DNA of 51,808 nt from Candidatus Firestoneibacteriota bacterium (GCA_038042445.1 JBBTED010000163.1:1-51808), one strand, 5' to 3'. Shown: positions 18,093-51,506, counted from the first letter of the stretch. Translations and numbers: made by a program. Notes: generated by a model from the sequence alone, not told the origin.

Positions 18093-18115
18093 ATAGGTCA
18101 GGCATCTTGCCTGAC
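18093..18115. repeat. GTAG-type REP-like palindrome (ATAG variant), possible terminator hairpin
   Basis: ATAG-GTCAGGCA-TCT-TGCCTGAC just after the giant gene stop. Confidence 0.7.
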
Positions 18116-18146
18116 ATCAGACGTTGGTGGTTGAAAAGTAGTTTTG

Positions 18147-18214
18147 CCCCATCTCTCTTTGTGGGAGAGGGCGTGCTCTATACCTGAGCATAGCGAATGG
18201 TATAGGGTGAGAGG
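18147..18214. repeat. CCCTCTCCC..GGGAGAGGG..GGGTGAG-type palindrome with a nested CTATACC-TGAGCATAGCGAAT-GGTATAG hairpin
   Basis: The outer element resembles 36137-36164; the inner stem is 18178-18184 paired with 18199-18205. Confidence 0.6.
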
Positions 18215-18230
18215 TTAGTAAAATAGGAAA

Positions 18231-20909
18231 ATGAAAAGTTTAAAACGAAAAATGAAAAACTATAAATTGAATGTAGTCGCAGGCTTTAGCCTGCGGTATT
18301 ATCTTTTACCATTTTTCCGCAGGCTAAAGCCTGCGACTACTATTTTAATATTCCTATTTTTAACTTCAACACTTTCCGCTGCGGATTGGAGAACATTCAA
18401 AAAAAATCCTGCACGTGTTGGGGAAGCAATAGAGCAGGCGCATCCACCTCTAACTTTGAAATGGCAGTTTACTGCTCAAGGCGCATTCCTTTCTTCGCCT
18501 ATAGTATATAAAGGTAGAGTCTACATAGGTAGTGAGGGAGGAGATGTTTTTGCTTTTGATGCATATACAGGAGCTATGGTATGGCAATATTCAACAGATG
18601 GTCCGGTTAGAGGGACACCATCTGCGGCGAATGGTATTATTTATGTATCTTGTCAGGATGGATATTTGTATGCATTTGATGCTAATACTGGAGACATTAA
18701 ATGGAAATATTTAACAGGAAGCAAAGATTGTTCTTCGCCTGTTGTTGAGAATGTTAAATTGTATGGGGCAAGTGGTTTTCCACAACAAGCTGTTTATTGT
18801 CTCAATGCAAGTACAGGAGCTGAGTTATGGAAAGTATCTTTAGATAAATATATTTATTCTTCACCTGTATATAAAGATGGTATTGTTTATGTTGGAGCTA
18901 ATAATGGAAAATTTTATGCATTAGATGCTAATACTGGAAGTATTAAGTGGTCATTTACCACAGAAGGTAGTATATATTTTTCTACAATGGCACTTGCAAA
19001 TGGAGTTGTTTATGGGGCACCTGGAAGTGATGATAGAAAAGTTTACGCACTAAATGCAAATGCTACAGGTGGTTTAAAAACTGGATGGAGTTTCACTGAC
19101 CTTGGAACAGCTCCAACAATTGTTTCTTCAATTGCAATATCAAACGGATTTTTATATATAGCAAGTGGAACAACGCCTTTTACTCTTTATAAATTAGATG
19201 CAGGCACAGGTGTAAAAATGGCAGAACGGGAAATTGGTATAAATTCCAATTTAGGATTTGCTTCTTCCCCTGCAATTTCAAATGGTGTTATATATATTGG
19301 AGCAGCAAATTCTATTTTTTATGCACTTGATGCAGGGACACTTGATATTCTTGGACAAATTACACTTGATGCACCTATTCTTTCAACAGCATCAATTTCC
19401 AATGGGTGGGTATATATTGGCACAGGTGATTTAGGTGATGGAACAATTTATGGTTTTGAATGTGCAAAAGCAGCAGCAATTACAAGTCCTGATGATGAAA
19501 CAGGCTCGGAAAATATTGTAGGTACAGTATTGGATATAAAAGGAATCGTTAAAAATCCTGATATAAAAAATTATAAACTCGAGTATAAATCAGAAGGTTT
19601 AAATGAATGGAATCTTTTTGCCACAGGAACAGGTGAGATAAATAATGCTATTCTTGGAACTTTATCTACATATAATATTCCACAAGGTAATGTTGATATA
19701 AAACTTACAGTAGAAGAATTAAGCGGAAGAATTCTGAATAATTTTGCTATGTTTCGTATTTATTTGGCTCAGACTTTTGCTATGATTCGCAAATGGGTGA
19801 CTGCAATATTAGGGGCAGTGATTACTGCTTATGATGGAACTGAGCTTACAATTGAGCCAGGTACTTTAAAACAAGATACTTATGTTACTATAAAAACCCC
19901 TATAGAGTATCCTGAAATGCTTGTGTCTACGAAATTCAAGCCAAGTCCTGTTGTCCGAGAATTTTTGATAGATATTGAAGATAAAACTTTTAATAAACCT
20001 GTTACTATTAAGATTCCATTTAAAGATGCAGATTTTGATATTAAAAAAGTTAAAAAAGAGAATTTAAAAATGTTCTATTATAATGAGAAGGATAAAAATT
20101 GGGAATTTATTTCGGATTCTTATGCTATAGCATCTCAAAATCTTGTTGTAGGCAAGGTAACGCATTTTTCAATGTTTGGAGTTTTTGGAGTTGCAAGTTC
20201 TTATGCCCAAGGTATAATTACTGTTGCTTTAGGTGGTACTTTAATGGCTGCAGATGGAACAACAGCTATATTTGAGCCTGGAGCTCTAACTGATGATGAT
20301 ACAGTAACTATTCAGGAACCACTTTCTTATTCAAATGATGGTATATCCAAATTTTATAAAAGCACAACTGTTACAAGAGAATTTTTAGTAACAAAACCAA
20401 GAAATTCCAAATTTAACAAACAAGTTACAATAAAATTGCCTTATACAGATGAAGAAATTCAGGGAATGAAAGAGAAAAATTTAAGAATATGCTGGTGGAA
20501 TTCTGAAAAATCTAAATGGCAGATGCTAAATTCATCTAAGCCGTCAATTGAAGAAAAAAAAGTTGTTGGAAAAGTTACACATTTTTCAATTTACAGGATT
20601 TTTGAATATTTGGGTGGTGAAGATCTTATAAATAAAGATACAGTTTATACATATCCAAATCCTGCTTTGGGAGACACTTTGGTTTTTAAATGTTATTTAG
20701 GTGATGATGCAGATATAACCATAGATGTATTTAATATAGCCGGAGAAAAGATAGCCATTTTGAACAATACAGGTATAGCAGGTGTAACTTTGGAAACCAC
20801 ATGGGATATAAACAATATCGCAAGCGGAGTATACATATATAAAATAGAAGCAACAGCTAAAAGCGGAGCAAAAAAATATGTCATTAAAAAACTCGCAATC
20901 GTCCATTGA
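18231..20909 (+). CDS. Secreted protein: PQQ/BamB-like beta-propeller, Ig-like linker, two ZU5-like domains ending in THFS, and a T9SS type-A-like C-terminal sorting domain
   Basis: Signal h-region ILIFLFLTSTLSA; W.TF..NPAR.G propeller start and repeated SSP..VY.G..G..YA.DA.TG...W blades; two copies of DGT....EPG.L..D..VTI...F.K.VTIK.P...W...GKVTHFS; C-terminal YPNP...WD...ASGVYIYKI...KKLAIVH. Confidence 0.85.
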   Translation: MKSLKRKMKNYKLNVVAGFSLRYYLLPFFRRLKPATTILIFLFLTSTLSAADWRTFKKNPARVGEAIEQAHPPLTLKWQFTAQGAFLSSPIVYKGRVYIGSEGGDVFAFDAYTGAMVWQYSTDGPVRGTPSAANGIIYVSCQDGYLYAFDANTGDIKWKYLTGSKDCSSPVVENVKLYGASGFPQQAVYCLNASTGAELWKVSLDKYIYSSPVYKDGIVYVGANNGKFYALDANTGSIKWSFTTEGSIYFSTMALANGVVYGAPGSDDRKVYALNANATGGLKTGWSFTDLGTAPTIVSSIAISNGFLYIASGTTPFTLYKLDAGTGVKMAEREIGINSNLGFASSPAISNGVIYIGAANSIFYALDAGTLDILGQITLDAPILSTASISNGWVYIGTGDLGDGTIYGFECAKAAAITSPDDETGSENIVGTVLDIKGIVKNPDIKNYKLEYKSEGLNEWNLFATGTGEINNAILGTLSTYNIPQGNVDIKLTVEELSGRILNNFAMFRIYLAQTFAMIRKWVTAILGAVITAYDGTELTIEPGTLKQDTYVTIKTPIEYPEMLVSTKFKPSPVVREFLIDIEDKTFNKPVTIKIPFKDADFDIKKVKKENLKMFYYNEKDKNWEFISDSYAIASQNLVVGKVTHFSMFGVFGVASSYAQGIITVALGGTLMAADGTTAIFEPGALTDDDTVTIQEPLSYSNDGISKFYKSTTVTREFLVTKPRNSKFNKQVTIKLPYTDEEIQGMKEKNLRICWWNSEKSKWQMLNSSKPSIEEKKVVGKVTHFSIYRIFEYLGGEDLINKDTVYTYPNPALGDTLVFKCYLGDDADITIDVFNIAGEKIAILNNTGIAGVTLETTWDINNIASGVYIYKIEATAKSGAKKYVIKKLAIVH
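18273..18340. repeat. GTAG-type REP doublet (inverted pair), in-frame in the signal peptide of the 892-aa gene
   Basis: GTAGTCGCAGGCTTTAGCCTGCG at 18273-18295 and its exact reverse complement at 18318-18340; translated as VVAGFSLR...RRLKPAT. Confidence 0.95.
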
Positions 20910-21423
20910 TAAATATGTAAAAATTCCCACTTTTGTAAAGGGGGATAAAGGGGGATTTGTAGCCGCAGGCTTTAGCCTGCGAAAGCATAAATCCATAGGT
21001 ATTTTTTTGATAACTATTTTTCTATTTGGCTGTGCTCCCCAAAAAGATATTATTAAACAAGATGTAGTTGCCGATTTATCGGCAATCAAAGAACCAGTAT
21101 ACATCACTGCAAGAGGAGTTGGTTCTCCATCTTTTGATTTACAAAAGATTCAGGAGAGAAGAATGTCTGCTAATAGGTCGTCTATATCTGCTGCAGTGTA
21201 TCAATTGATAAGTTTTCTCAAAGGATTGAGGTTAGAGAATGGTCAGATAGTAGGTAGTGCAATGGATGCAGATACAAAGTTTAAAGAAGTAGTAGAAAAT
21301 GCTGTTAAGGAATTATACGAAGTAGTAACACAGGATTTTACTACAACTGAAACATGTAGCAGTACTATTAGATTAGACAAAAACAAACTTGAAGATAAAC
21401 TAAAGGTAAAATTCAATGAATGA
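20878..21423 (+). CDS. Lipoprotein, LPP20-like (start codon uncertain)
   Basis: Lipobox IFLFG-C (Cys at 21031) after a hydrophobic stretch; ITARGVG.P...A.R.....A..QL...LKG pattern reminiscent of LPP20. Confidence 0.7.
   Translation: MSLKNSQSSIDKYVKIPTFVKGDKGGFVAAGFSLRKHKSIGIFLITIFLFGCAPQKDIIKQDVVADLSAIKEPVYITARGVGSPSFDLQKIQERRMSANRSSISAAVYQLISFLKGLRLENGQIVGSAMDADTKFKEVVENAVKELYEVVTQDFTTTETCSSTIRLDKNKLEDKLKVKFNE
20925..20981. repeat. Adjacent CCCCCTTT-type and GTAG-type palindromes, in-frame in the lipoprotein N-terminus
   Basis: TCCCACTTTTGTAAAGGGGGATAAAGGGGGATTT (20925-20958), then GTAGCCGCAGGCTTTAGCCTGCG (20959-20981). Confidence 0.9.
21064..21085. repeat. GTAG-type palindrome variant, in-frame (VVADLSA)
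   Basis: GTAG-TTGCCGAT-TT-ATCGGCAA; near-identical copy at 23341. Confidence 0.85.
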
Positions 21424-23041
21424 GTTATTTGTCATTCCCGCGAAAGCGGGAATCCAGTATTTTAGGGATAAAATTATGAATTTAAATTGTAGTGATCGAC
21501 AGTTGTCATTGCGAGTAGTTGTAGAGGTAGTCGCAGGCTTTAGCCTGCGGTCTTTCCTTCGCAAGCTAAAGCTTGCGGCTACAATTATGATATTTATATT
21601 TGCTATTTTTAACACCTGCTATTCCTCAGAAATTCATCCGAATGCAGGCACTACAAGTGCGTCTTTTCTTAAAATAGGCATAGGTGCAAGACCTGTAGGA
21701 ATGGGTGAAGCTTTTGTTGCAGTTGCAGATGATGCTAATTCAGTATACTGGAATCCTGCAGGTTTGGCTCGTGTTAAAAAAATGGAATTTACTGCAATGC
21801 ATAACGAATGGTTTCAGGATATAAGATATGAATTTATTGCTTATGCTCATCCTTTTGAAAATGGTTCAACTGGAGCTTTCCATTTAGGAAGTTTGTATTT
21901 AAAAGGTTTGGAAAGGCGAAGCTGGTTAACAGAAGATCCTGAAGATGATCCTAGTTTAGCAGAAGATTTATTTGGCGCAGCAGATTATGAAGGGGCAATT
22001 TCTTATAGTGGTTGGTTAACAGAAAATCTAATGGGAGGAGCAAATTTAAAATTTATTTATGAAACTATAGATAAATACAATGCTTCTGGTTTTGCATTTG
22101 ATTTGGGTTTAATTTATAAAATAGCAGGAGATAATTTAACTTCAGGACTTGTTCTGCAAAATTTAGGGCCAAAATTAACATTTATCCAAAGAGGGTATAT
22201 GTTGCCTTTAACAGCAAAATTAGGATTTGCATGGAAAATTCCTCTTCTTAATTTGTTATGGGCTATAGATTTGAAACAACCAATAGATAATTATCTTCAT
22301 ATAAATTCAGGTTTGGAATACTGGTTTATGAATACAATTGCATTAAGAGTTGGATATAGATACAAATGGTTTGGAAATGACTTAGGAACATTATCAGGGT
22401 TGACATCCGGTATGGGTTTTCAGGTGAATAATTTATTTGGTACGTTAGATATGGAATTAGATTATGCTTTTGTTCCCTATGGAGATTTAGGTTTCACGCA
22501 TAGGGTTTCATTAACAGCAAGATTTGGAACTTCTGTTGAATTACCAGAGTCTGAACCAGTTAAAGGAAAAACTGCTGATGAATTAAAACAGGAAATAATA
22601 TCAGAAGTAGATTCAAAAATAGCTGTAGCTGCAGAGCTTGCTCTGCAAAATAGTGATAATATTTCTAATAATTTAAATAAAATAAATACAGACATAACTA
22701 CAATTTCAGATAATATGAAAGTAATAATGGAAAAACTTAACACTCTTGATGAAAAACAGAAGGCTCAAGTTCTTAAAGATGAAGCAAAACAGGAAATAAA
22801 TACAGAAAAGGATGAAGCGAATAAGTTGCCTGAAAATATTAATATGCCATCAGACAATATAAAGCAAGAAACAAAATATGAAACATACGAAGTGCAACAA
22901 GGTGATAACCTGCATACTATTGCAAAAAAATTCTATGGCACTTCGGCAAAGTGGAATATTGTATATGAAGCAAATAAAGATACAATGAAAACACCAGATA
23001 ACATTAAAATCGGTAATAAACTAAAAATCCCCAAAGAATGA
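21416..23041 (+). CDS. PorV/PorQ-family outer-membrane beta-barrel fused to a coiled coil and a C-terminal LysM domain (true start may be downstream, e.g. 21476)
   Basis: FLKIGIGARPVGMGEAFVAVADDANSVYWNPAGLA N-terminal motif; DYAFVPYGDLGFTHRVSL barrel end; LysM YEVQQGDNLHTIAKKFYG...NIKIGNKLKIP. Confidence 0.88.
   Translation: MNELFVIPAKAGIQYFRDKIMNLNCSDRQLSLRVVVEVVAGFSLRSFLRKLKLAATIMIFIFAIFNTCYSSEIHPNAGTTSASFLKIGIGARPVGMGEAFVAVADDANSVYWNPAGLARVKKMEFTAMHNEWFQDIRYEFIAYAHPFENGSTGAFHLGSLYLKGLERRSWLTEDPEDDPSLAEDLFGAADYEGAISYSGWLTENLMGGANLKFIYETIDKYNASGFAFDLGLIYKIAGDNLTSGLVLQNLGPKLTFIQRGYMLPLTAKLGFAWKIPLLNLLWAIDLKQPIDNYLHINSGLEYWFMNTIALRVGYRYKWFGNDLGTLSGLTSGMGFQVNNLFGTLDMELDYAFVPYGDLGFTHRVSLTARFGTSVELPESEPVKGKTADELKQEIISEVDSKIAVAAELALQNSDNISNNLNKINTDITTISDNMKVIMEKLNTLDEKQKAQVLKDEAKQEINTEKDEANKLPENINMPSDNIKQETKYETYEVQQGDNLHTIAKKFYGTSAKWNIVYEANKDTMKTPDNIKIGNKLKIPKE
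21430..21457. repeat. TGTCAT-type palindrome with ATTCCC-N8-GGGAAT core
   Basis: TGTCATTCCCGCGAAAGCGGGAATCCAG; relatives at 42659-42733 and a degenerate one at 36072. Confidence 0.88.
21527..21582. repeat. GTAG-type REP doublet in-frame before the PorV-like signal h-region
   Basis: GTAGTCGCAGGCTTTAGCCTGCG...CGCAAGCTAAAGCTTGCGGCTAC. Confidence 0.93.
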
Positions 23042-25563
23042 TACGACCAACAACTATTTTTGCTTTTATTGTAATTTTCACTTCCTTTTTGTTTTATCTT
23101 TTTACTATATCACCTACTGTTGTAGTAGGTGATAGTGGTGAGTTAATTACAGCAGTCCATTCTTTGGGTATAGCACATCCACCTGGCTATCCTGTTTTTT
23201 GTATTTTAGGAAAAATATTCACTTTTTTGCCAGTTGGAACTATTGCCTTTCGCGTTAATCTAATGAGTGCATTTTTTAGTTCAATATCTTTACTGTTTAT
23301 ATATTTGATTTTGTTGAAAATATGGGGGCACAGTAAAGTTGTAGTTGCCGATTTATCGGTAAAAAATGAATCTAATGTTAATCCTGTATTTCTTTCTGCT
23401 TCTATGGCTCTTTGTTTTGCATTCACAAACACCTTTTGGTCGCAAGCATTAATGTCAGAAGTTTATGCCTTAAATACATTTTTTTTATCCGTTTTAATTT
23501 ATATTTTAGTTCTCTGGTATGAAAAGCTGCAAAACCAGATTTCCGACAATAAATTGTTATATTTATTTTCTTTTATATATGGAGTAAGTCTTGCGAATCA
23601 TAATACTATGGTTCTATTTGGGCCTATTGCTTATGGCTGGATAATTTTGTGTACACCTGATATTTTAAAGAAGAAAAACGTGTTAATATTATTGTTGGCA
23701 CTAATTTTTCTTGGATTAACAACTTATTTTTATATGCCTATACGTGCTTTAACTTCACCTGCAATAAATTGGGGAAATCCTGATACTTTAACACGTTTCA
23801 TTGATCAAATTACACGAAGGCAATATGGAGATCTTGCTAAAGATCCAAGGGCATTGGCGTTGTTTGGAAGACAGATATTGGAATATTTAAAACTATTAAT
23901 CAAGCAAATTTCTCCATTCCTGACTATTTTTTCTGTAATAGGAATATGGTACTTTTACAAAATTAACAGAAAATATTTTGTTCTAACACTTGCACTTTTT
24001 TTAGGTTTAAGTTTGGGTTTTATACTTTTGCTCAATTTTCAGCTGACTACTGAGACTATTCTTTCAGTGGCAGAGTTTTTTACAGCATCTTATGTTATTG
24101 CTATTATATGGTTATGTTTTGGATTCAAATTTATTCTTGAAAGGCTATATCCCAAAAAACAACTTTTTTATATGACTTATGGAATTATTTTTTTAATCCC
24201 AATTCTTTCACTTAAATTGAATTACTTTGAAAATGATCTAAGCAGGAAATATATAGCTTATGACTATAATATAAGTGTTATGAAATCAATGCCTAAAAAT
24301 TCAATGCTCCTTGGTATGGGCGATAATATAATATTTCCTTTATCATATCTTCAAAAAGTTGAAAAAAACAGGCAAGATTTAAAAATTTATGATGATATAG
24401 GTTGTGTATTTGAAAATATTTATGGTGAGGATTTTTTGAAATTTCCAGAAGATTATAAGAAGCAAAAAAGAACTGAAATACAGAAACTTTTGATAAAAAA
24501 TTCACAAAATCCGGTATATTGTGTTTTAGGAAGTAATTTGTCTAATATCACAGGAATATCTTTGACTCCGGAAGGTTTAGTTTGTAAAACACTCCCAAAA
24601 AACACAATAAATTCAGACAAAGATGATATTGTCAATATGGATTTTCAATCAGGGAAAGGAAAGTTGATTGCTATACCTGTTAATCAATCTGTTAACCGTA
24701 AGAAAAATGTAGACACTAAATTTGATTGGTCAAAAATCTATATACGTGGGATAGATGATGATACAGTCTATAAGGATTATTTGAATAGAGATTTAATTGC
24801 CCAATACCATTTTTTTTATGCAGAGCATTTGTTTTTTAAAAATGATATAAAAAATGCAAAAGAGGAATACAACAAATCATTTAAAGTGGCACAGGATATA
24901 GAGTGGATAAAAAATAATATTATGGTTACATTAAATGTCAGGGGTTTGTCAGATGAAGTGGAAAAAATTGCAACTGAATCAGTAAAAATTGATTCTAATA
25001 ATGCCCAGATATATGTTAATTTAGGAATATCTTTTTATAATAAAGGTGTTTTGGATAAAGCAATTGAATCATATAAAAAAGCAATTGAAATAGATTCTAA
25101 ATGTGTTGAAGCACATTCAAATTTAGGTGTGGTTTATGAAAAGATGGGGTTAACAAATGATGCAATCAATGAATACAAAATTACAATTGAACTTGAGTCT
25201 AACCATATAATTGCACGTCATAACCTTGGGGTTTTATATAAAAAAGAAGGTAAATATATAGAAGCAATTAATGAATTTGAAAAGGTGATAAAGATTAATC
25301 CTGATTTAACTGAAGCATATATATCGCTGGGAATTTCGTATGGAAAATTAAACCAGTATGAAAATGCTATAAAGGTATTTAAAAAAATAATAGAAAAAGA
25401 TGATTCAAATGCAGAGGCACATTATAACCTTGGAGTTGCATATTACAAAATAGGAGTTCTAAAAGATGCCAAGCAAGAGTGGGAAAAAACTTTAAGTATA
25501 AATCCAAATTATCCCTTAGTAAAAGAACATTTAGCTCACATTTTCGGCAACACTAAAAATTAA
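23038..25563 (+). CDS. DUF2723/TMEM260-like multi-pass GT-C glycosyltransferase with C-terminal TPR repeats
   Basis: PTV..GDSGEL......GIAHPPGYP motif, WSQA...EVY.L, many TM helices, and about six TPRs (A..NLG..Y...G....AI..Y.K.I). ATGA overlap with the upstream gene. Confidence 0.9.
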   Translation: MIRPTTIFAFIVIFTSFLFYLFTISPTVVVGDSGELITAVHSLGIAHPPGYPVFCILGKIFTFLPVGTIAFRVNLMSAFFSSISLLFIYLILLKIWGHSKVVVADLSVKNESNVNPVFLSASMALCFAFTNTFWSQALMSEVYALNTFFLSVLIYILVLWYEKLQNQISDNKLLYLFSFIYGVSLANHNTMVLFGPIAYGWIILCTPDILKKKNVLILLLALIFLGLTTYFYMPIRALTSPAINWGNPDTLTRFIDQITRRQYGDLAKDPRALALFGRQILEYLKLLIKQISPFLTIFSVIGIWYFYKINRKYFVLTLALFLGLSLGFILLLNFQLTTETILSVAEFFTASYVIAIIWLCFGFKFILERLYPKKQLFYMTYGIIFLIPILSLKLNYFENDLSRKYIAYDYNISVMKSMPKNSMLLGMGDNIIFPLSYLQKVEKNRQDLKIYDDIGCVFENIYGEDFLKFPEDYKKQKRTEIQKLLIKNSQNPVYCVLGSNLSNITGISLTPEGLVCKTLPKNTINSDKDDIVNMDFQSGKGKLIAIPVNQSVNRKKNVDTKFDWSKIYIRGIDDDTVYKDYLNRDLIAQYHFFYAEHLFFKNDIKNAKEEYNKSFKVAQDIEWIKNNIMVTLNVRGLSDEVEKIATESVKIDSNNAQIYVNLGISFYNKGVLDKAIESYKKAIEIDSKCVEAHSNLGVVYEKMGLTNDAINEYKITIELESNHIIARHNLGVLYKKEGKYIEAINEFEKVIKINPDLTEAYISLGISYGKLNQYENAIKVFKKIIEKDDSNAEAHYNLGVAYYKIGVLKDAKQEWEKTLSINPNYPLVKEHLAHIFGNTKN
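23341..23362. repeat. GTAG-type palindrome variant in-frame in an inter-helix loop (VVADLSV)
   Basis: GTAGTTGCCGATTTATCGGTAA, 21/22 identical to 21064-21085. Confidence 0.85.
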
Positions 25564-25568
25564 ACAAA

Positions 25569-25615
25569 AATTCCCCCCCTACCCCCCTTTAGTAAAGGGG
25601 GATTAAGGGGGAATT
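25569..25615. repeat. CCCCCTTT-N3-AAAGGGGG-type palindrome, intergenic
   Basis: AATTCCCCCCCTACCCCCCTTT-AGT-AAAGGGGGATTAAGGGGGAATT. Confidence 0.9.
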
Positions 25616-25629
25616 AAAAAGAGTTTCAG

Positions 25630-26790
25630 ATGGAAAAAATTGATTTTTTAAAAGAACACCAGTTGCTTTTACAAAAAGCAAATAAAGAACAGCAATTCCT
25701 ATTGCATTGTTTGCAAGGATCTTTTCTTAATCCACAAGAAAAATTAAATTGGGAATATTTTGCCAAGCAAGTTATAGAACATAATGTTGCAGGAGTTTTA
25801 TTTAACTATTTTAGTAAAAATGAAAATATTGTGCCTATTGATGTTTTAGATACCTTCAAAAATATTTATGAAAAAAATATAATGCGTCATATTTTGTGGG
25901 CTAATGAGGCAACAAATATTACAAATGCTTTATCAGAAAATGGGATAAATACGGTTTTGCTTAAGGGAATAGGGCTTGCTGAGACTATATACCCTCATCC
26001 TGGGTTACGGTCGTTTTCTGATATTGATTTTCTTGTGCCGCAGGATAAATTGCTTAAAGTAAAAGATATATTGATTGATTTAGGGTATGATTTAATTTAT
26101 ACAGATAGTCTGAAATGGTTATTAAAAAACAATCTCGCGTTGTCTTTTATAAATAAAAAAAACAAAATTTATTTGGAAATCCATACTGATATAGTAAATA
26201 ACAAGTGGTATGCTGAATCTACAAATATTGATATGGATGCAATATGGCAAAATGTTATATCAAAAGAAATCAATGGTAAAAAAGTATTCTTACTTTCTCC
26301 AGAAGATAACATTTTGTATCTTTCGATACATCTTGCAGTTGCTCATGGGTTTCACGGTTTAATATGGTTTTATGACATAAATGAATTTATAAATTTTTAT
26401 AAGAATAAAATAAATTGGGATATTCTTTTTGAAAGAGCTGAAAAATTTAATATCGTGAAGCCGGTTTATCTTACTTTGTTGTATACAGCTATTGTTTTCC
26501 AAAATGAAATATGCATAAAGAACTTGGAACATTTTAGATCATTTAAAATATCTAGATTTGAAAATCAGTTATGGGTAGGAAACATCTTAAATAACAATAA
26601 ATATGCCCATTTCTTTTTTTGGCTAATGCCTAATTCCAGAACAGAACAATTTAAACTTTCTCTTAAAATGTTTTTTGCAAGAAGAGAACATTCAATAGTA
26701 AAATCAGGCATATATACTCTAATGCTTTCAACTAAAACTATAATAGCTTTGTTAAATAATTATTTCCCTTCGCCTAGGCGGAGGGATTAA
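25630..26790 (+). CDS. Uncharacterised nucleotidyltransferase (NTP_transf_5-like)
   Basis: LLKG..LA...YP.PGLR...DIDFLV and E.H motifs. Confidence 0.85.
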   Translation: MEKIDFLKEHQLLLQKANKEQQFLLHCLQGSFLNPQEKLNWEYFAKQVIEHNVAGVLFNYFSKNENIVPIDVLDTFKNIYEKNIMRHILWANEATNITNALSENGINTVLLKGIGLAETIYPHPGLRSFSDIDFLVPQDKLLKVKDILIDLGYDLIYTDSLKWLLKNNLALSFINKKNKIYLEIHTDIVNNKWYAESTNIDMDAIWQNVISKEINGKKVFLLSPEDNILYLSIHLAVAHGFHGLIWFYDINEFINFYKNKINWDILFERAEKFNIVKPVYLTLLYTAIVFQNEICIKNLEHFRSFKISRFENQLWVGNILNNNKYAHFFFWLMPNSRTEQFKLSLKMFFARREHSIVKSGIYTLMLSTKTIIALLNNYFPSPRRRD

Positions 26791-26891
26791 GGGGTATTTT
26801 TAAAAATATGGTACCCCCCCATTGCGTAGAGACTCATTGCAATGCGTTTCTACTTGTATGCCCACTTTATTAAAGGGGGTAGGGGGGAATT
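26764..26891. repeat. Cluster of palindromes: TCCCTTCGCC-TA-GGCGGAGGGA element containing the stop codon, a GTAG-type element (26826-26853) and a CCCCCTTT-type element (26861-26891)
   Basis: GTAGAGACTCATTGCAATGCGTTTCTAC is a near-perfect palindrome; CCCACTTTATTAAAGGGGGTAGGGGGGAATT matches 25569 and 28503. Confidence 0.85.
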
Positions 26892-26894
26892 GTT

Positions 26895-26922
26895 TTGACA
26901 AACCAACAAAATTCTGTATAAT
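26895..26922 (+). promoter_or_regulatory. Sigma70-type promoter
   Basis: TTGACA (26895-26900), 16-bp spacer, TATAAT (26917-26922); the ATG follows 10 nt later with no SD. Confidence 0.8.
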
Positions 26923-26932
26923 TATATAAACA

Positions 26933-27307
26933 ATGAATAAAATACTGGTTGTAGATGACGAAGTAGATATAGCAGAGGTTTTAGCTGCTTTTTTGATTAA
27001 AGAAGGTTATGATGTAGTTACTGCTTATGATGGTAATACTGCCTTACAGAAATTTTCAGAAGTTAATCCATCTTTAATTTTATTGGATATACAATTACCT
27101 GACATAAATGGTATAGAAGTATTAGGAAAAATTAAAGGAATAAATAAAGACATAAATGTAATTATGATAACTGCATTTAGAGATGCAGATAAAGTTGTTG
27201 AAGCATTTCGCCTTGGTGCTTATGATTGTATATTTAAACCTTTTGATTTTAACTATCTAAAAAATGCAGTTCTGGCTGTAATAGGTAAAGCAGATTTATG
27301 TAAGTAG
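26933..27307 (+). CDS. Single-domain response regulator (CheY-like receiver)
   Basis: ILVVDDE, LLDIQLP phosphoacceptor, MITA and FKPF motifs. Confidence 0.95.
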   Translation: MNKILVVDDEVDIAEVLAAFLIKEGYDVVTAYDGNTALQKFSEVNPSLILLDIQLPDINGIEVLGKIKGINKDINVIMITAFRDADKVVEAFRLGAYDCIFKPFDFNYLKNAVLAVIGKADLCK

Positions 27308-27327
27308 CGGTTGGATTACTATCCAAC
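27304..27327. repeat. GTAG-type palindrome whose TAG is the regulator's stop codon
   Basis: GTAGCG-GTTGGAT-TACT-ATCCAAC; same GTAGCGGT start as 34100. Confidence 0.7.
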
Positions 27328-27357
27328 TAAAAGAAATGGTGTAAACACAAATAAAAA

Positions 27358-28500: not shown

Positions 28501-28502
28501 AA

Positions 28503-28546
28503 AATTTCCATAACCCCCTTTATTAAAGGGGGATTAAGGGGGAATT
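28503..28546. repeat. CCCCCTTT-type palindrome, intergenic
   Basis: CCCCCTTT-ATT-AAAGGGGGATTAAGGGGGAATT. Confidence 0.9.
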
Positions 28547-28569
28547 ATTTTCGTAGGAGGTGGGGAAAA

Positions 28570-28746: not shown

Positions 28747-28778
28747 TATACTAAATTATCAGTTGCGAGTTTTTGTGG

Positions 28779-28847
28779 GTAGTCGCAAGCTTTAGCTTGC
28801 GGTATTGTTTTTTACCATTTTTTCCGCAGGCTAAAGCCTGCGACTAC
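28779..28847. repeat. GTAG-type REP doublet, intergenic
   Basis: Arms at 28779-28801 and 28825-28847; the spacer GTATTGTTTTTTACCATTTTTTC resembles that of the 18273 copy. Confidence 0.95.
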
Positions 28848-34099: not shown

Positions 34100-34121
34100 G
34101 TAGCGGTCAGCGTAAGCTGAC
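34100..34121. repeat. GTAG-type palindrome, intergenic
   Basis: GTAGCG-GTCAGC-GTAA-GCTGAC. Confidence 0.7.
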
Positions 34122-34138
34122 TTTTTAATATAATACTT

Positions 34139-36071: not shown

Positions 36072-36164
36072 TCATTTCCGCGAAATCGAGAATTCAAAGG
36101 TAGCCGCAGGCTTTAGCCTGCGATTTAGTTGTTTTTCCTCTCCCCTTGTGGGAGAGGGTTAGGG
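36072..36164. repeat. Three-family palindrome cluster between convergent operons (possible bidirectional terminator)
   Basis: Degenerate TCATTTCCGCGAAATCGAGAATTC (36072-36095), GTAGCCGCAGGCTTTAGCCTGCG (36100-36122) and CCTCTCCCCTTGTGGGAGAGGGTTAGGG (36137-36164). Confidence 0.85.
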
Positions 36165-36821
36165 TTTTTTTGCTTCTATTATTATAATAGGCGCAAATGC
36201 TTTAAAGACAGGAAAAATATAAATTTTTCTTGCAATAATAAGATTGGATTTTTTCAAAATATTAGCAATATCTTTCACTTTGTAAGTTTTGAAAGGTAGT
36301 TTGTCAGCTTTTGGTTCATAATATTTTGCAAGTTTGTATGCAAAGTAAAAAAATGGATTTAGACTGTTTCTAATATCAAATACTATTTTTCCGTTTGTTT
36401 TGCATACACGCCCCATTTCCTCTATAATTTTTTGCACAGTTTCTATTGAATCTATATTAATCAATAGATTAAATGCAAATACAGTGTCAAAAATTTCATT
36501 TTTAAATGGCAAATTAGTTCCATCTCCAAATACAGCGTGAATATTTTTAATGTTATTTTTGTCGCAAGTGTATTTCAGTTTTAGAAGGTTTTCCTCATAG
36601 TTATCAATTCCATATATTTTTAATGCAGAATTGATTTTGGCTAATTTAGTTAGGTACAATCCTTCTCCGCATCCGACTTCAAGAATAGTGCCGCTATATT
36701 CTTGTGATGCATTTAATATTTTTTTTCGTATAAGATTTGGGAAAAAGCCTGCAGAATATTCTTCTTTTTCATCAGAAGCTGATATTAGCCTGTGAAACCA
36801 CACATACAGTTTTTTAATCAT
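36159..36821 (-). CDS. Class I SAM-dependent methyltransferase
   Basis: ILEVGCGEG, YGID, D...LPF....FD, E..RV.K..G. Confidence 0.9.
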   Translation of the reverse strand: MIKKLYVWFHRLISASDEKEEYSAGFFPNLIRKKILNASQEYSGTILEVGCGEGLYLTKLAKINSALKIYGIDNYEENLLKLKYTCDKNNIKNIHAVFGDGTNLPFKNEIFDTVFAFNLLINIDSIETVQKIIEEMGRVCKTNGKIVFDIRNSLNPFFYFAYKLAKYYEPKADKLPFKTYKVKDIANILKKSNLIIARKIYIFPVFKAFAPIIIIEAKKP

Positions 36822-36836: not shown

Positions 36837-36872
36837 TCCCCCTCTTTAAAAAAGAGGGGTTAGGGGAGATTT
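36837..36872. repeat. CCCCCT-type palindrome, intergenic
   Basis: CCCCTCTTT-AAA-AAAGAGGGGTTAGGGGAGATTT. Confidence 0.85.
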
Positions 36873-38842: not shown

Positions 38843-38916
38843 TGTCATCCTGAACTTGTTTCAGGATCTCAAAACACCTTGATTTTATTAGATGCTGAAA
38901 TAAATTCAGCATGACA
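38843..38916. repeat. TGTCAT-type doublet, intergenic
   Basis: TGTCATCCTGAACTTGTTTCAGGATCTC ... AGATGCTGAAATAAATTCAGCATGACA; a further TGTCAT...GCAATC element at 38812-38835. Confidence 0.9.
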
Positions 38917-40407: not shown

Positions 40408-40462
40408 GTAGTCGCAGGCTTTAGCCTGCGGTTTTTTTTCGCAAGCTAAAGCTTGCGACTAC
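40408..40462. repeat. GTAG-type REP doublet containing the stop codon of the GT4 gene
   Basis: Arms at 40408-40430 and 40440-40462; the GT4 ends ...GSRKL* inside the right arm. Confidence 0.95.
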
Positions 40463-42637: not shown

Positions 42638-42755
42638 TGTAAATACGTTTTATTTCTTTGTCATTCCCGCATGTAGTAAGCGGGAATCCAGTGTCTTGTT
42701 GTTTTCTGGATTCCTGCTTTCGCAGGAATGACACGTATTTTACTGAGTATTTACA
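42638..42755. mobile_element. MITE-like element: TGTCAT-type doublet enclosed by 9-bp terminal inverted repeats
   Basis: TGTAAATAC (42638-42646) and GTATTTACA (42747-42755) enclose TGTCATTCCCGC..GCGGGAATCCAG (42659-42691) and CTGGATTCCTGCTTTCGCAGGAATGACA (42706-42733). Confidence 0.55.
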
Positions 42756-42779: not shown

Positions 42780-44765
42780 TCATTTTGTCTTAGTCAATTC
42801 TACAAATAAAACATAGCCTATATCATCTTTGCTCAAATAATAATCTAATCGGACAGCTATAAAAAAAAGAAGGGGTCTTAAAATGTATAATCCTCTTATT
42901 CCATATACAATATCTGCTGCTATGGCGCTGAATGTTTTTAAGGTGTATTCATAGTGGACGATTTTTAAAGTGGGGGGGATGGTTTTTTTTAAATATTCTA
43001 CTGTGTATAATCTGCGATAGCCAAGCTTTTTCATAATATATTCTTCGGTAATTTCGAACCATGCTTTTTTATCAGGAAAATCTCTTGTGTAAAGAAATTT
43101 TGGAAGGAATTTTCTTAATAATTTTTGAACATTGAATAATTTGGCACTGGGAGATAAATTGTGTGGTATTGAAATTATAATTTTCCCATTTGGTTTGAGA
43201 ACTCTGGAAAATTCATTAAAAACTGCAATATCATTTTCAATTTCATCTATGGCATCTAATGATATAATCTTGTCAAAAAAATTGTCCGAAAAAGGTAAAT
43301 GTGTCATATCTGCAGGAACAAAATTAAATTTATCCTTGTCTTTGGTTTTTATTTTTTTATATATCCCATCAATTTTTTTGTCATTCAAATCAATACCTGT
43401 TATTTTCGAACATTTTTTGAGAAGTTTTAATAAAATAAGTCCTTCTCCACAGCCTGCATCAAGAACTATATCGTTTTTGTCAAACTTGATTTTTTTGAAT
43501 AAAGTGTAATACCTTGGCAACCATAATGCTTGTGAAGGGATAAATTTTTTAAGTATGTTTTTAAGGAAGTTTTTCATCTGCTTCTCTAAATTGTCATGCC
43601 GAACTTGTTTCGGCATCTCATATTTATCAAATATATTAAATAATGTTTTTTTTATTGCAGTGAAACTATATTTTTCAATACATTTTTCTCTTGCTTTTTT
43701 GCCTAAACTATCTGCAAATTCACTATTTTCTGATAGGAATATTATTTTTTTAGCTAATGCGCTAATATCATCAGCTTTTACTATTATACCACAATTTTCT
43801 AAGATTTGTGGCATATCTCCAACATCTGTAGCTATTATTGGTTTTGCCATAGCCATTGCATCAAAGAGTTTTGCTGGAACTTGTCCTTTAGTTGCCCAAT
43901 TGTATTTTTGTGGAATTACAATTATGTCACTTATTGCTAAAAATTCTGGGAGTTTTGCTATTGGTTGTTCACTAAAGATTTTAAATTTATGATGCCGTAA
44001 TTTTTCTTCAATCATTGTACGCAATTGTTTATTGTATTTACTATTATCTAATCCTACAAGCAGTAATAATAAATTTTTATTCGTAATTATACTTATAGCG
44101 TTAATCAAATTCTCAATTCCTTTGTGTTCTCTTGGAGTGCCTATAAATCCAATAACTTTCTCATCTTTTATTCCAATTTTTTTTCTTAAGTTGTTTCTAT
44201 CAAAATGTTCGGGATTAAATATCTCTGTGTTTTTTATATGAGGTATAATTGTTCCACCAAATTTTTTTTGTAAAAAAGAATTTGAAACTGTAATTTCATC
44301 TGCTAATGGAATTAATTTTTCAACAAAAAATATATTCCAATAAGAATAATATGCTTTAATTGACGAAAGAAAATTTTTAATCTTTTTCAATAAAGAGAGT
44401 TTAATATAAGATTCTTTTGAAAGCCCTAGCTCCCAATCATCTATATCTAAAATTAATGGTTTTTTGAAGAAAAATTTTTGAATTAATCCAGGAATGAGAT
44501 TTACAAAAAAAGGTTTGCAGATATAAATAATATTTCCTGTGGTTTCTTTTAACATAGCAGATATTATTTTATAATACAATATGCTGTGTTTGCCTGAGAT
44601 ACTTTTAAAATTAGTTTCTTCTGTAATAAGTGGAAACCAGATAGATTTATCAAATTTAGGACCAATTATTTCTATTGTATATTTTTCTTTAAGTATTTCT
44701 CCTAATATATATGCCCGTCCAAGAGAATTGCTGTTCAAGTTTTCTGTTAAGATAGAGATTTTCAC
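42780..44765 (-). CDS. GT4 glycosyltransferase fused to a class I SAM methyltransferase
   Basis: GFIG....HKG, P.KLFDAMAMAKPII.T.VG in the N-terminal part; VLDAGCGEG, LPF.D..FD, RVLKP.G in the C-terminal part. Confidence 0.88.
   Translation of the reverse strand: MKISILTENLNSNSLGRAYILGEILKEKYTIEIIGPKFDKSIWFPLITEETNFKSISGKHSILYYKIISAMLKETTGNIIYICKPFFVNLIPGLIQKFFFKKPLILDIDDWELGLSKESYIKLSLLKKIKNFLSSIKAYYSYWNIFFVEKLIPLADEITVSNSFLQKKFGGTIIPHIKNTEIFNPEHFDRNNLRKKIGIKDEKVIGFIGTPREHKGIENLINAISIITNKNLLLLLVGLDNSKYNKQLRTMIEEKLRHHKFKIFSEQPIAKLPEFLAISDIIVIPQKYNWATKGQVPAKLFDAMAMAKPIIATDVGDMPQILENCGIIVKADDISALAKKIIFLSENSEFADSLGKKAREKCIEKYSFTAIKKTLFNIFDKYEMPKQVRHDNLEKQMKNFLKNILKKFIPSQALWLPRYYTLFKKIKFDKNDIVLDAGCGEGLILLKLLKKCSKITGIDLNDKKIDGIYKKIKTKDKDKFNFVPADMTHLPFSDNFFDKIISLDAIDEIENDIAVFNEFSRVLKPNGKIIISIPHNLSPSAKLFNVQKLLRKFLPKFLYTRDFPDKKAWFEITEEYIMKKLGYRRLYTVEYLKKTIPPTLKIVHYEYTLKTFSAIAADIVYGIRGLYILRPLLFFIAVRLDYYLSKDDIGYVLFVELTKTK
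43591..43621. repeat. TGTCAT-type palindrome forming the GT4-MTase linker (EMPKQVRHDN)
   Basis: TTGTCATGCCGAACTTGTTTCGGCATCTCAT, identical over 31 bp to intergenic 47597-47627. Confidence 0.95.
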
Positions 44766-47596: not shown

Positions 47597-47655
47597 TTGT
47601 CATGCCGAACTTGTTTCGGCATCTCATTAGACCCTGAAACAAGTTCAGGGTGACA
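47597..47655. repeat. TGTCAT-type doublet, intergenic
   Basis: TGTCATGCCGAACTTGTTTCGGCATCTC followed by AGACCCTGAAACAAGTTCAGGGTGACA. Confidence 0.92.
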
Positions 47656-50074: not shown

Positions 50075-50080
50075 AGATAT

Positions 50081-51424
50081 TTATATAACTTTAATAATTT
50101 TGTTGCTAATTATGTTTTTTGTGGCATTTCGTGTATCAAATACAAGTTTGCTGTTTTTTACTAAATAGTTGTAATTATAACGGGTGTGGTCTGTGGCAAT
50201 AAGTATTGCATCGTATTTATATAGATTTTTATAATTAAGTTTTGTGGAATTAAAAATTTTATTTTTAATTTTTACTTTTGGAATATATGGGTCATTAAAA
50301 TCAACAGGAATATTTTTATCTAATAAAGCACTGAAGATTTTAAGTGAAGGGGATTCACGATAATCATTAACATTTTTTTTGTATGCAAGCCCTAATACTA
50401 ATATTCTTGCACTTTTAAACTGGACATTGCGAGAAATTAATTCTTTTTTTAATATTCGCACAACATAATTAGGCATTTCCTGATTTATTTTTACTGCTAA
50501 TTTTATAAATTTTGAATTGAACCCACTTTTTTTTGCTTTCCATATTAAATATAATGGGTCTAAAGGAATACAGTGTCCTCCTATTCCTATACCGGGATAA
50601 AATGGCATAAACCCATAAGGTTTAGTTGCAGCAGCAGAAATAACTTCCCAGATGTCTATATCCAATTTTTTGCAAAGCATTGCCATTTCATTTGCCAAAG
50701 CGATATTTACATTTCTAAATATGTTTTCAAACAGTTTTTCGGCTTCAGCAATTTCTGGTGAGGATACTTTTATCACTTTGTCAATAAATTGGCTATAGAA
50801 AAAATGTGCAAGATTAGTGCATTTTTGAGTAATACCTCCAACAATCTTAGGAGTATTTTTAGTATTAAATGCTTTATCACCTGGATTAATTCGTTCAGGT
50901 GAAAACGCCAGAAAATAATCTTTCCCAATAGATGGGCGTCTTGCCCCCTTTAGTAAGGGGGGTAGGGGGGATTTATTCAAAATTGGCAGTATCACTTGTC
51001 GCGTTGTGCCTGGATAAGTAGTGCTTTCAAGAATTATTAATTGACCTGAATGTAAATATTTTGCAATATTTTTTGTGGAATTGATGATGTCCGATATTGC
51101 TGGCTCATGATGCACATTTACAGGTGTAGGAACACATATACAAATTATATCAATATTGTGCAACTCATCAAAATTTGAAGTTGGAATTAATAGTTTTTTA
51201 TTTAATGCTTGTAAAATAGTGCTATCTTTGATGTCAGATATATAGCTTTTTCCATTTTTTATTTTTTTTATACGTTCATAGTTTATGTCAATACCAATAA
51301 CTTTATAGCCAGCTTTAGTTGCTGCAATTGCTAAAGATAGTCCAACATATCCTAAACCAAATATACCAATAGTTGCATTACGTTTTTTAATTTTATCAAC
51401 TAATTGGGCATATATATCACTCAT
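50081..51424 (-). CDS. UDP-N-acetylhexosamine 6-dehydrogenase (WbpA/WecC family)
   Basis: GLGYVG, ICVPTP, ESTTYPGTT, SPERI.PG, GGHCIP.DP, GLAYK..V.D.RESP. Confidence 0.93.
   Translation of the reverse strand: MSDIYAQLVDKIKKRNATIGIFGLGYVGLSLAIAATKAGYKVIGIDINYERIKKIKNGKSYISDIKDSTILQALNKKLLIPTSNFDELHNIDIICICVPTPVNVHHEPAISDIINSTKNIAKYLHSGQLIILESTTYPGTTRQVILPILNKSPLPPLLKGARRPSIGKDYFLAFSPERINPGDKAFNTKNTPKIVGGITQKCTNLAHFFYSQFIDKVIKVSSPEIAEAEKLFENIFRNVNIALANEMAMLCKKLDIDIWEVISAAATKPYGFMPFYPGIGIGGHCIPLDPLYLIWKAKKSGFNSKFIKLAVKINQEMPNYVVRILKKELISRNVQFKSARILVLGLAYKKNVNDYRESPSLKIFSALLDKNIPVDFNDPYIPKVKIKNKIFNSTKLNYKNLYKYDAILIATDHTRYNYNYLVKNSKLVFDTRNATKNIISNKIIKVI
50928..50974. repeat. Composite ATAG-type plus CCCCCTTT-type palindrome in-frame in the dehydrogenase (KSPLPPLLKGARRPSI)
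   Basis: ATAGATGGGCGTCTTGCCC runs into CCCCCTTTAGTAAGGGGGGTAGGGGGGATTT. Confidence 0.88.
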
Positions 51425-51432
51425 TATTTTAC

Positions 51433-51461
51433 ATTATAAGGATAAAAAAAAGTTCTTGCAA
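51433..51461 (-). promoter_or_regulatory. Sigma70-type promoter of the minus-strand polysaccharide operon
   Basis: On the minus strand: TTGCAA (51461-51456), 17-bp spacer, TATAAT (51438-51433), then 8 nt to the ATG at 51424. Confidence 0.75.
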
Positions 51462-51468
51462 GATAAAT

Positions 51469-51506
51469 AAATCCCCCTTTGACAAAGGGGGAAAGAGGGG
51501 GATTTT
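51469..51506. repeat. CCCCCTTT-type palindrome, intergenic
   Basis: TCCCCCTTT-GAC-AAAGGGGGAAAGAGGGGGATTT. Confidence 0.9.

Follow-up and report, generated by a model that had tools for sequence, protein, structure and literature searches.

Introduction

This report concerns the short palindromic elements of a 51,808-nucleotide (nt) contig of Candidatus Firestoneibacteriota bacterium (GCA_038042445.1, JBBTED010000163.1:1-51808), here called the window, meaning that whole stretch. An original prediction, made from the sequence, had placed about 30 such elements between positions 18,093 and 51,506, in the form of GTAG- or ATAG-headed hairpins, TGTCAT-headed hairpins, and CCCCC..GGGGG elements. 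Repetitive extragenic palindromes (REPs) and their doublets (REPINs), together with genes for REP-associated tyrosine transposases (RAYTs), are reportedly the subject of work by Bertels and Rainey (2011).

The closest described system for the first kind of element is the GTAG-tagged REP superfamily, in which a tag is followed by a stem of 6 to 13 base pairs (bp) and a short loop and in which head-to-head (HH) dimers are formed (Di Nocera, De Gregorio & Rocco 2013, PMC3733652). Several such families may occupy one genome, each with its own REPtron; heterodimers with unlike stems and some intragenic copies have been described, and REPs lie mainly downstream of genes (PMC3733652). A second superfamily, the CGTC-tagged REPs, often carries TGTC as its tag (CCTC is a further variant), followed by a stem of 8 to 9 bp that almost always starts with AT, a loop of 4 to 5 nt, and a tail that is mostly CCA; HH dimers are formed here as well (PMC3733652, section 6). 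The Rickettsia palindromic elements RPE-4 and RPE-6 are of the CGTC type (as cited in PMC3733652). Neisseria NTS and related SRM motifs flank genes for small GIY-YIG single-strand nucleases (Ssn), which cut them (Chenal et al. 2025, PMC11893778). The third relevant group, the BoxC/PIT/TMECO repeats, has been described as G/C-rich intrastrand triplex motifs (Holder et al. 2015, PMC4666352).

We conclude, with a probability of roughly three in four, that the ~30 elements of the window are local copies of three genome-wide, already described tagged-hairpin superfamilies, and that each of these superfamilies probably owes its spread to a small nuclease or transposase gene of its own, located on another contig and flanked by its own repeats.

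Results

Window elements as members of genome-wide hairpin families. The assembly consists of 2,812,258 bases in 181 contigs (31.9% G+C; completeness, 90%), among which the window is contig C163. Copies were counted genome-wide by pattern searches and hairpin censuses, with order-3 Markov sequence as the control, and open reading frames (ORFs) were crude calls from the first start codon that covered 91% of the genome. Forty relatives were compared; the nearest comparison genomes belong to the same class and share ~52% protein identity for a conserved enzyme. Each listed coordinate was judged by folding with DNA parameters and by counting 22-mer copies at <=2 mismatches.

At all 32 coordinates of the original prediction the sequence was as described, and 28 of the 32 proved to be stable hairpins that recur in the genome, in keeping with the claim of about 30 palindromic elements in at least three families. 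Four cases were doubtful or degenerate: 50928 has a stem of 4 bp and occurs as a single copy, 36072 is a decayed copy, 38812 forms no hairpin, and 18147 is a TM-like single copy that has decayed. One element that had not been listed was found at 22625-22647. Perfect GC-rich hairpins with a stem of >=7 numbered 833 genome-wide versus ~67 expected, and GC-core hairpins under a 6-bp criterion numbered 1065 versus 187 and 169 in two controls. By class, there were 401 GTAG hairpins (2 to 4 in controls), 145 TGTC hairpins (0 to 1), 140 hairpins with C-run stems (referred to as C5; 3 to 4), 76 ATAG hairpins (17), 45 CRISPR repeats, and 258 others (143 to 164). Several families coexist throughout the genome, as had been proposed, and extend well beyond this locus. 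These same elements also supply the most frequent 14-mers of the genome; among the 14-mers listed, the sole other repeat was GTTTCAATCCACGC, part of a CRISPR-like repeat unit.

The stems of the GTAG hairpins covary under a fixed head and loop, as the original prediction had also held. When GTAG was used as an anchor with a TTTA loop 7 to 9 nt downstream, 464 of 1060 sites showed 5 to 6 of 6 complementary arm positions, and 52 different left arms were found among them; three control anchor pairs gave 1/77, 7/836, and 6/511. Within the window, 30 hairpins passed the strict criterion, 29 of them within 18058-51808, at a density about twice the genome mean, and 10 of the 20 spacers in that region held at least one element. 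Positions 1-18057 form a single open frame of more than 6000 codons, the giant gene that had been described as free of elements. No family member was present in it; one strict-criterion hairpin was found there and was assigned to no family, and the expectation from the genome-wide in-ORF rate is only ~0.6 hairpins.

GTAG/ATAG-headed hairpins and RAYT-like genes. Judged by their anatomy, the GTAG- and ATAG-headed hairpins are GTAG-tagged REPs, mostly arranged as head-out doublets. The tag remains unpaired at one end of a short GC-rich hairpin with a stem of 7 to 8 bp and a TTTA loop. The largest family, family A, has 141 copies: 98 of them form 49 head-out doublets, the other 43 are singletons, and tail-tail and head-tail pairs are absent. 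Heterodimers of a CAGGC arm and a CAAGC arm make up 31 of the 49 doublets, and the CAAGC arm is almost confined to them (31 versus 1 singleton). Family A occurs in 5 of the 40 relatives, with 38 copies in genome G005 and 1 to 2 in each of four others (a reversed-pattern control gave 0 matches), and the orientation bias of the GTAG copies is mild (167:102). Agreement with the described GTAG REPs and REPtrons extends to the 5' GTAG tag, the 6- to 8-bp stem, the short loop, the predominance of head-out dimers, the heterodimers with unlike stems, the coexistence of families with their own flanked RAYT gene, and the presence of some copies within genes. Differences are the uncultured groundwater host, the TTTA loop common to many stem variants, and one family that is ATAG tagged, a tag outside the degenerate tags listed in section 5 of PMC3733652.

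Five Y1 HUH genes (Y1_Tnp) exceeded the Pfam cut-off, all on contigs other than the window, and the best NCBIfam model for each of the five proteins was "REP-associated tyrosine transposase" (REP_Tyr_transpos). The curated NCBIfam cut-off of 80 was passed by the C59 protein alone (111 bits). Each of these RAYT-like genes is bordered by a different GTAG or ATAG variant, four on both sides and one upstream only (Table 1). Among the relatives, Y1 genes are present in 31 of 40. The RAYT-like gene at C63:8398-8664 runs on in one frame into a surface-protein ORF, and the resulting frame of 1383 codons (C63:4660-8808; locus L004) unites a RAYT-like domain with a translated REP cluster and a large secreted repeat protein.

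TGTC-tagged hairpins and GIY-YIG genes. The TGTCAT-headed hairpins are best classed as CGTC/TGTC-tagged REPs, that is, as NTS/SRM motifs of Ssn nucleases, and not as RAYT-type elements. A total of 271 TGTCAY heads were followed by 7 to 8 of 8 possible stem pairs, with 40 different arms. The commonest arms start with AT and one abundant arm starts with AC; the loops are GAAA, CTTGT, or TTTAT, plus a subfamily with a 9-nt loop, and the tails are CCA (113), CTC (66), or CTA (56). The copy at 21430-21457 fits 27 of the 28 positions of the Neisseria NTS consensus, the first base being the exception; the remaining subfamilies do not fit that consensus and count as SRM-like only. Orientation bias is again mild (60:37).

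The GIY-YIG matches in the genome are five: one is UvrC-like, two are small and have no hairpins nearby, and two are hairpin flanked (Table 1). In NCBIfam, the GIY-YIG proteins gave only weak matches to group I intron endonucleases. The family thus resembles the CGTC REP/Ssn system in its TGTC tag variant, AT-starting 8-bp stem, 4- or 5-nt loop, CCA tail, and head-out dimers, as well as in the small single-domain GIY-YIG genes flanked on both sides. It departs from that system in its extra subfamilies with CTC or CTA tails and 9-nt loops and in the lack of a cognate gene for the NTS-like subfamily.

C5 elements as BoxC/PIT/TM-type repeats. By their layout, the CCCCC..GGGGG elements fall among the G/C-rich BoxC/PIT/TM-type repeats. 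At 119 loci genome-wide, a C-run arm, a W-rich loop, and a G-run arm are followed, after 2 to 8 nt, by a second G-run. This second block mirrors the first, covaries with the stem variant, and is followed by ATTT. The exact C5 pattern was found 43 times in this genome, 108 times in G033, 16 times in G038, once in G029, and not at all in the other 37 relatives searched. Across phyla, with one genome per species, it was found at no fewer than 130 loci, versus ~0.3 chance matches estimated from its 21 specified bases. The matches listed came from Thermodesulfobacteriota, Geobacter, Nitrospirota, Beta- and Gammaproteobacteria, Schekmanbacteria, Omnitrophota, Chloroflexi, Pirellulaceae, Acidobacteriota, Parcubacteria, Methylomirabilota, and Nitrospinota, and nearly all of the listed loci kept the ATTT tail, which lies outside the search pattern.

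The main C5 variant (C5TTT/AAAG5 arms) falls outside the published TMECO pattern, with its 9-nt CCCTCNCCC-type arms, and a minor variant (window 36137-36165; 7 to 10 genome copies) approaches TMECO with a short third block. Because the arms differ or the third block is short, the family was filed as a variant of the BoxC/PIT/TM kind and not as TMECO. What it shares with that kind, as known here from sequence alone, is the three-block plan, a high copy number, and a distribution that is patchy among relatives and wide among phyla; C5TTT/AAAG5 arms, a conserved ATTT tail, sense bias, proximity to stop codons, and in-frame copies set it apart from TMECO. In print, the main C5 sequence was found solely as the consensus of an unnamed "multicopy nucleotide sequence," near-identical to it, in supplementary file 12 of the Geobacter bemidjiensis genome paper (PMC2996986); the relevant parts of RepRanger (PMC12306157) and of Quentin et al. 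2018 (PMC6006769) do not mention the family.

The idea that C5 copies might bound a larger element was rejected, as C5 pairs 150 to 2500 bp apart in this genome enclose only ordinary genes and three C5 pairs ~1.85 kb apart in G033 enclose unrelated genes. In a Nitrospirales chromosome record (L097, 1501-2566), four same-strand C5 copies stand ~275 bp apart with identical left flanks; these look like an element-carrying tandem array rather than separate insertions.

DUF559 genes beside C5 elements. Both full-length DUF559 genes of the genome touch C5-type elements (Table 1). Their proteins resemble a solved "endonuclease-like protein" (PDB 3hrl; E = 4.9e-18), with which a D...ExDGxxH stretch aligns, and their best NCBIfam match, PRK09767, was under its cut-off. 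The association was followed through 25 DUF559 loci, drawn from 19 relatives in addition to this genome, an element being scored as a pyrimidine-arm hairpin plus G-block at <=150 nt from the Pfam match. Such an element was present near DUF559 in 21 of the 25 loci, and on both sides in 10. Near DUF559 there were 44 elements in 7.4 kb (5.9 per kb), versus 4 in 56.6 kb (0.07 per kb) elsewhere in the same loci. Copies upstream and downstream of one DUF559 gene are usually of one stem variant, and the variants differ between genes. In G005, G021, and G033, the variant adjoining DUF559 is the abundant dispersed variant of that genome; loose-pattern matches there numbered 241, 80, and 622 versus 0, 29, and 9 in controls, with overlapping matches counted repeatedly. 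In Escherichia coli MG1655, a TM-like stretch coincides with the last codons of the DUF559 gene ycjD, and a tabled TMECO copy lies ~170 nt downstream. The region after ycjD (1351000-1351450; L205) holds a partial duplicate of the last ~45 bases of the gene, TM-like remnants, and the full TMECO copy, which suggests repeated events at this downstream site.

We somewhat favor the reading that the CCCCC..GGGGG elements may be satellite repeats of DUF559 (Vsr-like) nucleases, a third system of tag, hairpin, and small nuclease beside REP/RAYT and SRM/Ssn. On this view, the BoxC/PIT/TM repeats, which have been known since the 1990s, would have in DUF559 the partner enzyme that they have lacked. The link between DUF559 and BoxC/PIT/TM was not found in print in our literature searches, and among the listed papers naming DUF559, none concerned repeats as judged by title and abstract opening. 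Several findings weigh against this reading. Four of the 25 loci lack such an element, 22 of 41 genomes encode DUF559 and 4 contain the exact C5 pattern, and no DUF559 gene adjoining the main C5 variant was found in this 90%-complete, 181-contig assembly. The last two points would suit an alternative in which the repeats prefer sites by DUF559 genes, or DUF559 cassettes home into repeats, and DUF559 is not the spreading enzyme, as would the 2015 study, whose account of 23 E. coli TM copies gives no mobility genes nearby (PMC4666352). The adjacency of C5 elements to DUF559 genes is itself a difference from TMECO as reported there, and so is the sense bias, the E. coli copies having been described as free of strand bias. 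We regard this alternative as unlikely in view of the ~84-fold enrichment of elements near DUF559 within the same loci, the consistent orientation, with tags facing the DUF559 gene, and the match between gene-side and dispersed variants in this genome as well as in G005, G021, and G033. Among 89 small ORFs next to C5 copies in other phyla (80 to 280 residues; from 229 C5 neighbors, loci L021-L100), no recurring Pfam family was found; this is to be expected of dispersed copies and is not counter-evidence to a partner.

Copies within genes. The intergenic 9% of the genome holds most copies of each family (GTAG, 307 of 401; TGTC, 124 of 145; C5, 92 of 140). Copies lying >50 codons from the first start and >10 codons from the stop numbered 43 for GTAG, 5 for TGTC, 17 for C5, and 18 for ATAG, and these in-ORF counts are upper bounds because stop-free repeats can fuse neighboring frames. 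In the window, 13 of the 28 family hairpins lie inside first-start ORFs, most near the 5' end, and many of these "coding" copies are ambiguous because they lie in the first codons. The earlier statement that elements are both intergenic and coding can thus be kept in the form that most are intergenic and a minority are in frame, with the ambiguous copies at ORF starts set apart. Copies are not restricted to sites downstream of stop codons, as ordinary terminators would be.

The best in-frame case is the C5 element at 50944-50975, where all six orthologs examined and two solved structures have a 10-residue gap exactly at the element. At 23341-23363, the loop exceeds that of the closest among 12 paralogs of the same genome by ~10 residues, loop length being variable. 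The elements at 18273-18340 and 20925-20982 are probably translated, because the stretch from the repeats to the signal-peptide core lacks a canonical start codon. Both the 33091 and the 43592 copies are in interdomain linkers; for the former, the matches of relatives begin at residue >=199 and no ortholog covers the AMIN/Poly_export linker, so that this ATAG copy is not scorable as an insertion. In a Nitrospiraceae locus, two C5 copies are in frame within a 633-codon cobalamin gene. Such copies resemble the Rickettsia palindromic elements RPE-4 and RPE-6, in-frame palindromic repeats that add ~10 to 30 residues to protein genes; unlike those, the best in-frame cases here are of the C5/TM and GTAG types and are documented at the level of sequence.

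The window ORF at 42780-44765 (minus strand, 661 codons) joins a GT1 glycosyltransferase to a methyltransferase domain through an in-frame TGTC repeat and may be a repeat-mediated gene fusion or the result of a lost stop codon.

Features of the window and its setting. The elements of the window and the candidate enzyme genes on other contigs are listed in Table 1.

Table 1. Hairpin elements of the window, followed by candidate enzyme genes with their contig positions
Feature	Position	Strand	Context or basis
ATAG-headed REP, ATAGGTCAGGCATCTTGCCTGAC type, intergenic	18093..18116	+	51 copies at <=2 mismatches; type flanks C59 RAYT-like gene
TM-like hairpin, decayed, single copy (doubtful member)	18147..18175	+	Folding, copy count
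Family A head-out doublet GTAG...CTAC	18273..18340	.	In signal-peptide n-region of PQQ/T9SS-tail ORF 18231-20909
C5/TM-type, one stem mismatch	20925..20958	+	In 5' part of ORF 20878-21423
Family A GTAG REP, single	20959..20982	+	Hairpin census, folding
GTAGTTGCCGA-type REP, read VVADLSA in ORF 20878-21423	21064..21086	+	110 copies
TGTC-tagged REP, NTS consensus but first base	21430..21457	+	Consensus comparison
Family A heterodimer (CAGGC + CAAGC arms)	21527..21582	.	
GTAGC-GCAGAGC-type REP in ORF 21416-23041, ~residue 405	22625..22647	+	Type flanks C63:23635-24333
GTAGTTGCCGA-type REP, one stem mismatch, read VVADLS	23341..23363	+	Loop of TMEM260-like glycosyltransferase ORF 23038-25563
C5/TM-type, C/G run both sides	25569..25616	.	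Just past stop of ORF 23038-25563
TM-type variant, C-rich stem	26764..26797	+	Overlaps end of ORF 25630-26790
GTAG...CTAC imperfect palindrome	26826..26853	.	Low copy (4)
C5/TM-type, one stem mismatch	26861..26888	+	
GTAG-headed hairpin at stop of ORF 26933-27307	27304..27327	+	Low copy (6)
C5/TM main variant, sense	28510..28546	+	14 nt past stop of ORF 27358-28500
Family A heterodimer	28779..28847	.	
GTAGGGCAAGGC-type REP	32617..32640	+	First codons of ORF 32572-34053; 25 copies
ATAG-headed variant, in frame	33091..33114	+	Between AMIN and Poly_export domains, ORF 32572-34053
GTAG-headed hairpin, intergenic	34100..34122	+	4 copies
TGTC-type, decayed, stem not intact (doubtful member)	36072..36095	+	Folding, copy count
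Family A GTAG REP, convergent spacer	36100..36123	+	
TM-type near E. coli TMECO, short third block	36137..36165	+	TMECO table comparison
C5/TM variant CCCCTCTTT...AAAGAGGGG between two minus-strand genes	36837..36871	+	Variant of C86 DUF559 3' doublet
TGTC-tagged REP, ATCCTGAA stem, 5-nt loop, 5' end of ORF 37955-38848	38843..38870	+	83 copies; type flanks C79 GIY-YIG
Family A heterodimer	40408..40462	.	Overlaps stop of ORF 40446-41705
TGTC head-out doublet, ATTCCCGC and ATTCCTGC stems	42659..42734	.	
TGTC-tagged REP, in frame	43592..43619	+	Between glycosyltransferase and methyltransferase domains, ORF 42780-44765
TGTC head-out heterodimer, GCCGAA and CCTGAA stems, intergenic	47598..47655	.	
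C5/TM element in frame, UDP-sugar dehydrogenase ORF 50081-51424 (minus)	50944..50975	+	10-residue insert
C5/TM element upstream of ORF 50081-51424	51469..51506	+	
RAYT-like gene (locus L002)	C59:5293-5787		ATAGGTCAGGC type (ATAG-headed family), both sides
RAYT-like gene	C11		GTAGGGGCGAG/GGGCAGG doublet type
RAYT-like gene	C63:23635-24333		GTAGC-GCAGAGC type
RAYT-like gene	C63:8398-8664		GTAGTTGC-GAT type
RAYT-like gene	C74		GTAGGGAATGGTC, upstream only
GIY-YIG gene, 110-codon frame	C79:17105-17437		63.8 bits; TGTC-type hairpins both sides
GIY-YIG gene, 112-codon frame	C63:19762-20100		63.5 bits; TGTC-type hairpins both sides
DUF559 gene	C86:3675-4043		Pfam PF04480, 112.8 bits; 3' head-out doublet of CCCCTCTTT variant
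DUF559 gene	C21:22213-22680		PF04480, 88.7 bits; CTCCCCCTGACAAGGGGGAG-type before, CCCTCCC-type after, both tags toward gene

Beyond position 18057, the window carries a polysaccharide/envelope cluster with glycosyltransferases, methyltransferases, a Wzx-like flippase, Wza/Wzc-like export proteins, and T9SS-type cargo. The TMEM260-like/TPR glycosyltransferase encoded at 23038-25563 has 14 more matches in its own genome and many in relatives and so belongs to a strongly expanded family. A HicA-type toxin ORF (PF07927) lies at 29920-30168, between genes for an AAA ATPase and a PIG-L deacetylase. Two CRISPR repeat types ending in GTGGATTGAAAC were among the GC-rich hairpins (31 and 12 perfect-hairpin copies), on contigs other than the window, and the crude ORF caller runs through parts of the CRISPR arrays. 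Summed contig depth in four groundwater runs showed a 10- to 150-fold jump in the repeat-holding bins of the window (21380-22045, 28040-28705, and 36032-37363); therefore, the repeat sequences must be very abundant across those communities and not in one genome only.

Discussion

Direct observations comprise the anatomy of the elements, their excess over controls, the covariation of stems, the way the copies are distributed, the enzyme genes that they flank, and, in at least one clear case, insertion in frame. We propose that the partner enzyme would recognize the tag and hairpin on single-stranded DNA and cut there, a RAYT also rejoining the ends. This action would give rise to new copies, chiefly in spacers close to the 3' ends of genes, and selection would leave in-gene copies only where ~8 to 23 extra residues are tolerated, such as in loops, linkers, and signal-peptide n-regions. 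Cleavage of the motif has been published for Ssn enzymes of other bacteria (PMC11893778).

Several points count against propagation of each family by its own enzyme. The RAYT-like, GIY-YIG, and DUF559 proteins of this genome are candidate enzymes, and mobilization by Ssn or DUF559 is a proposal; in the published work as we cite it, Ssn cuts near the motif and modulates transformation, and copying of the motif by Ssn was not shown (PMC11893778). Four of the five RAYT-like proteins scored under the NCBIfam cut-off (65 to 78 bits). The fifth, that of C59, may be inactive, because FRDF replaces the usual tyrosine context, the other four proteins having YYEH, FYDY, or FYDH at this place. In this 90%-complete, 181-contig assembly, no RAYT gene was found adjoining family A, the largest family, which is unlike known GTAG REPs, and no cognate gene was found for the NTS-like TGTC subfamily. 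Empty sites, finally, were not seen in contigs of other samples: a search of the contigs of four runs (X2, X4, X5, and X10) over 18050-38000 gave no clean empty site, an absence that proves nothing, as contigs break at repeats, and the joints listed connect different repeat copies, none of them skipping exactly one element.

With respect to the original prediction, its view that the enzymes are encoded elsewhere agrees with the candidates found on other contigs between flanks of their own family (5 RAYT-like, 2 GIY-YIG, and 2 DUF559). The proposed RAYT link is retained for the GTAG/ATAG hairpins and abandoned for the TGTCAT (CGTC/Ssn) and CCCCC (BoxC/TM) elements. That the families are "actively remodelling genes" is not borne out as worded; in-frame copies exist, and contigs of other samples gave no clean empty site.

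A different account would have the hairpins be host-selected structural signals, such as terminators, mRNA 3' stabilizers, or nucleoid sites, kept by selection and not mobile. The C5 copies give this account its best material: the median distance of intergenic copies from the stop codon that they face is 17 nt (within 20 nt for 48 of 84), only 2 of 92 are in divergent spacers (6 at contig ends), which make up ~12% of spacer bases, and those in unidirectional spacers comprise 51 sense, 10 antisense, and 16 two-sided copies. Sense bias and stop proximity, a further point against our reading, also fit an RNA-level role, and REPs in general favor sites downstream of genes (PMC3733652). Terminator-like sites in 18000-37999 numbered 17 versus 8.1 +/- 3.2 expected, and 10 of the 17 are these elements; however, the scan gave loose matches only, some on the wrong strand, and the C5 hairpin is followed not by a T-run but by a conserved tail of G-run and ATTT. 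Copies also occur in frame within genes, the same sequences are found in many phyla yet are patchy among relatives, a nuclease gene is bordered by each family, and the GTAG and TGTC orientation biases are mild. Selection as a host signal is compatible with a secondary role of the elements and not with their origin, and as a full explanation we consider it improbable. The preference of C5 copies for the sense orientation suggests a further effect at the RNA level or a tolerance that depends on orientation.

It is less probable still, and indeed hardly to be expected, that RAYT transposases move all three families as REP/REPIN elements. The genome does have five RAYT-like genes, and the general plan of tag, hairpin, and head-out doublets is common to all three families, but none of the five genes is bordered by TGTC or C5 elements, which instead border GIY-YIG and DUF559 genes, respectively; for CGTC REPs, the 2013 survey did not find a dedicated transposase in its treatment of that group (PMC3733652). 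The suggestion that the hairpins are chance matches or assembly artefacts is ruled out for practical purposes, for although an AT-rich background yields some ATAG-headed chance hairpins (17 in each control), the excess over controls is ~20- to 200-fold and contigs from three further samples of four studies contain identical stretches.

On our reading of three superfamilies with separate partner enzymes, the first two families are known systems in a new host, and the third belongs to a kind of repeat already described, its link to DUF559 not having been found in print in our searches. Dense REP-type repeats, multiple families per genome, heterodimers, and in-frame copies are all already in the literature. 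What this 2.8-Mb genome of a poorly known groundwater lineage offers is three tagged-hairpin systems together with candidate enzyme genes, and it is therefore a compact place in which to compare their coexistence and the tolerance of sites. The third family may link the long-orphaned, pan-bacterial BoxC/PIT/TM repeat to DUF559, a nuclease family that is very common and has no assigned role. Should DUF559 cut these structures, the genome instability reported around BoxC/PIT/TM would be explained, a structure-specific nuclease would be added to the toolbox, as with Ssn, and the three systems would be found together in a single small genome.

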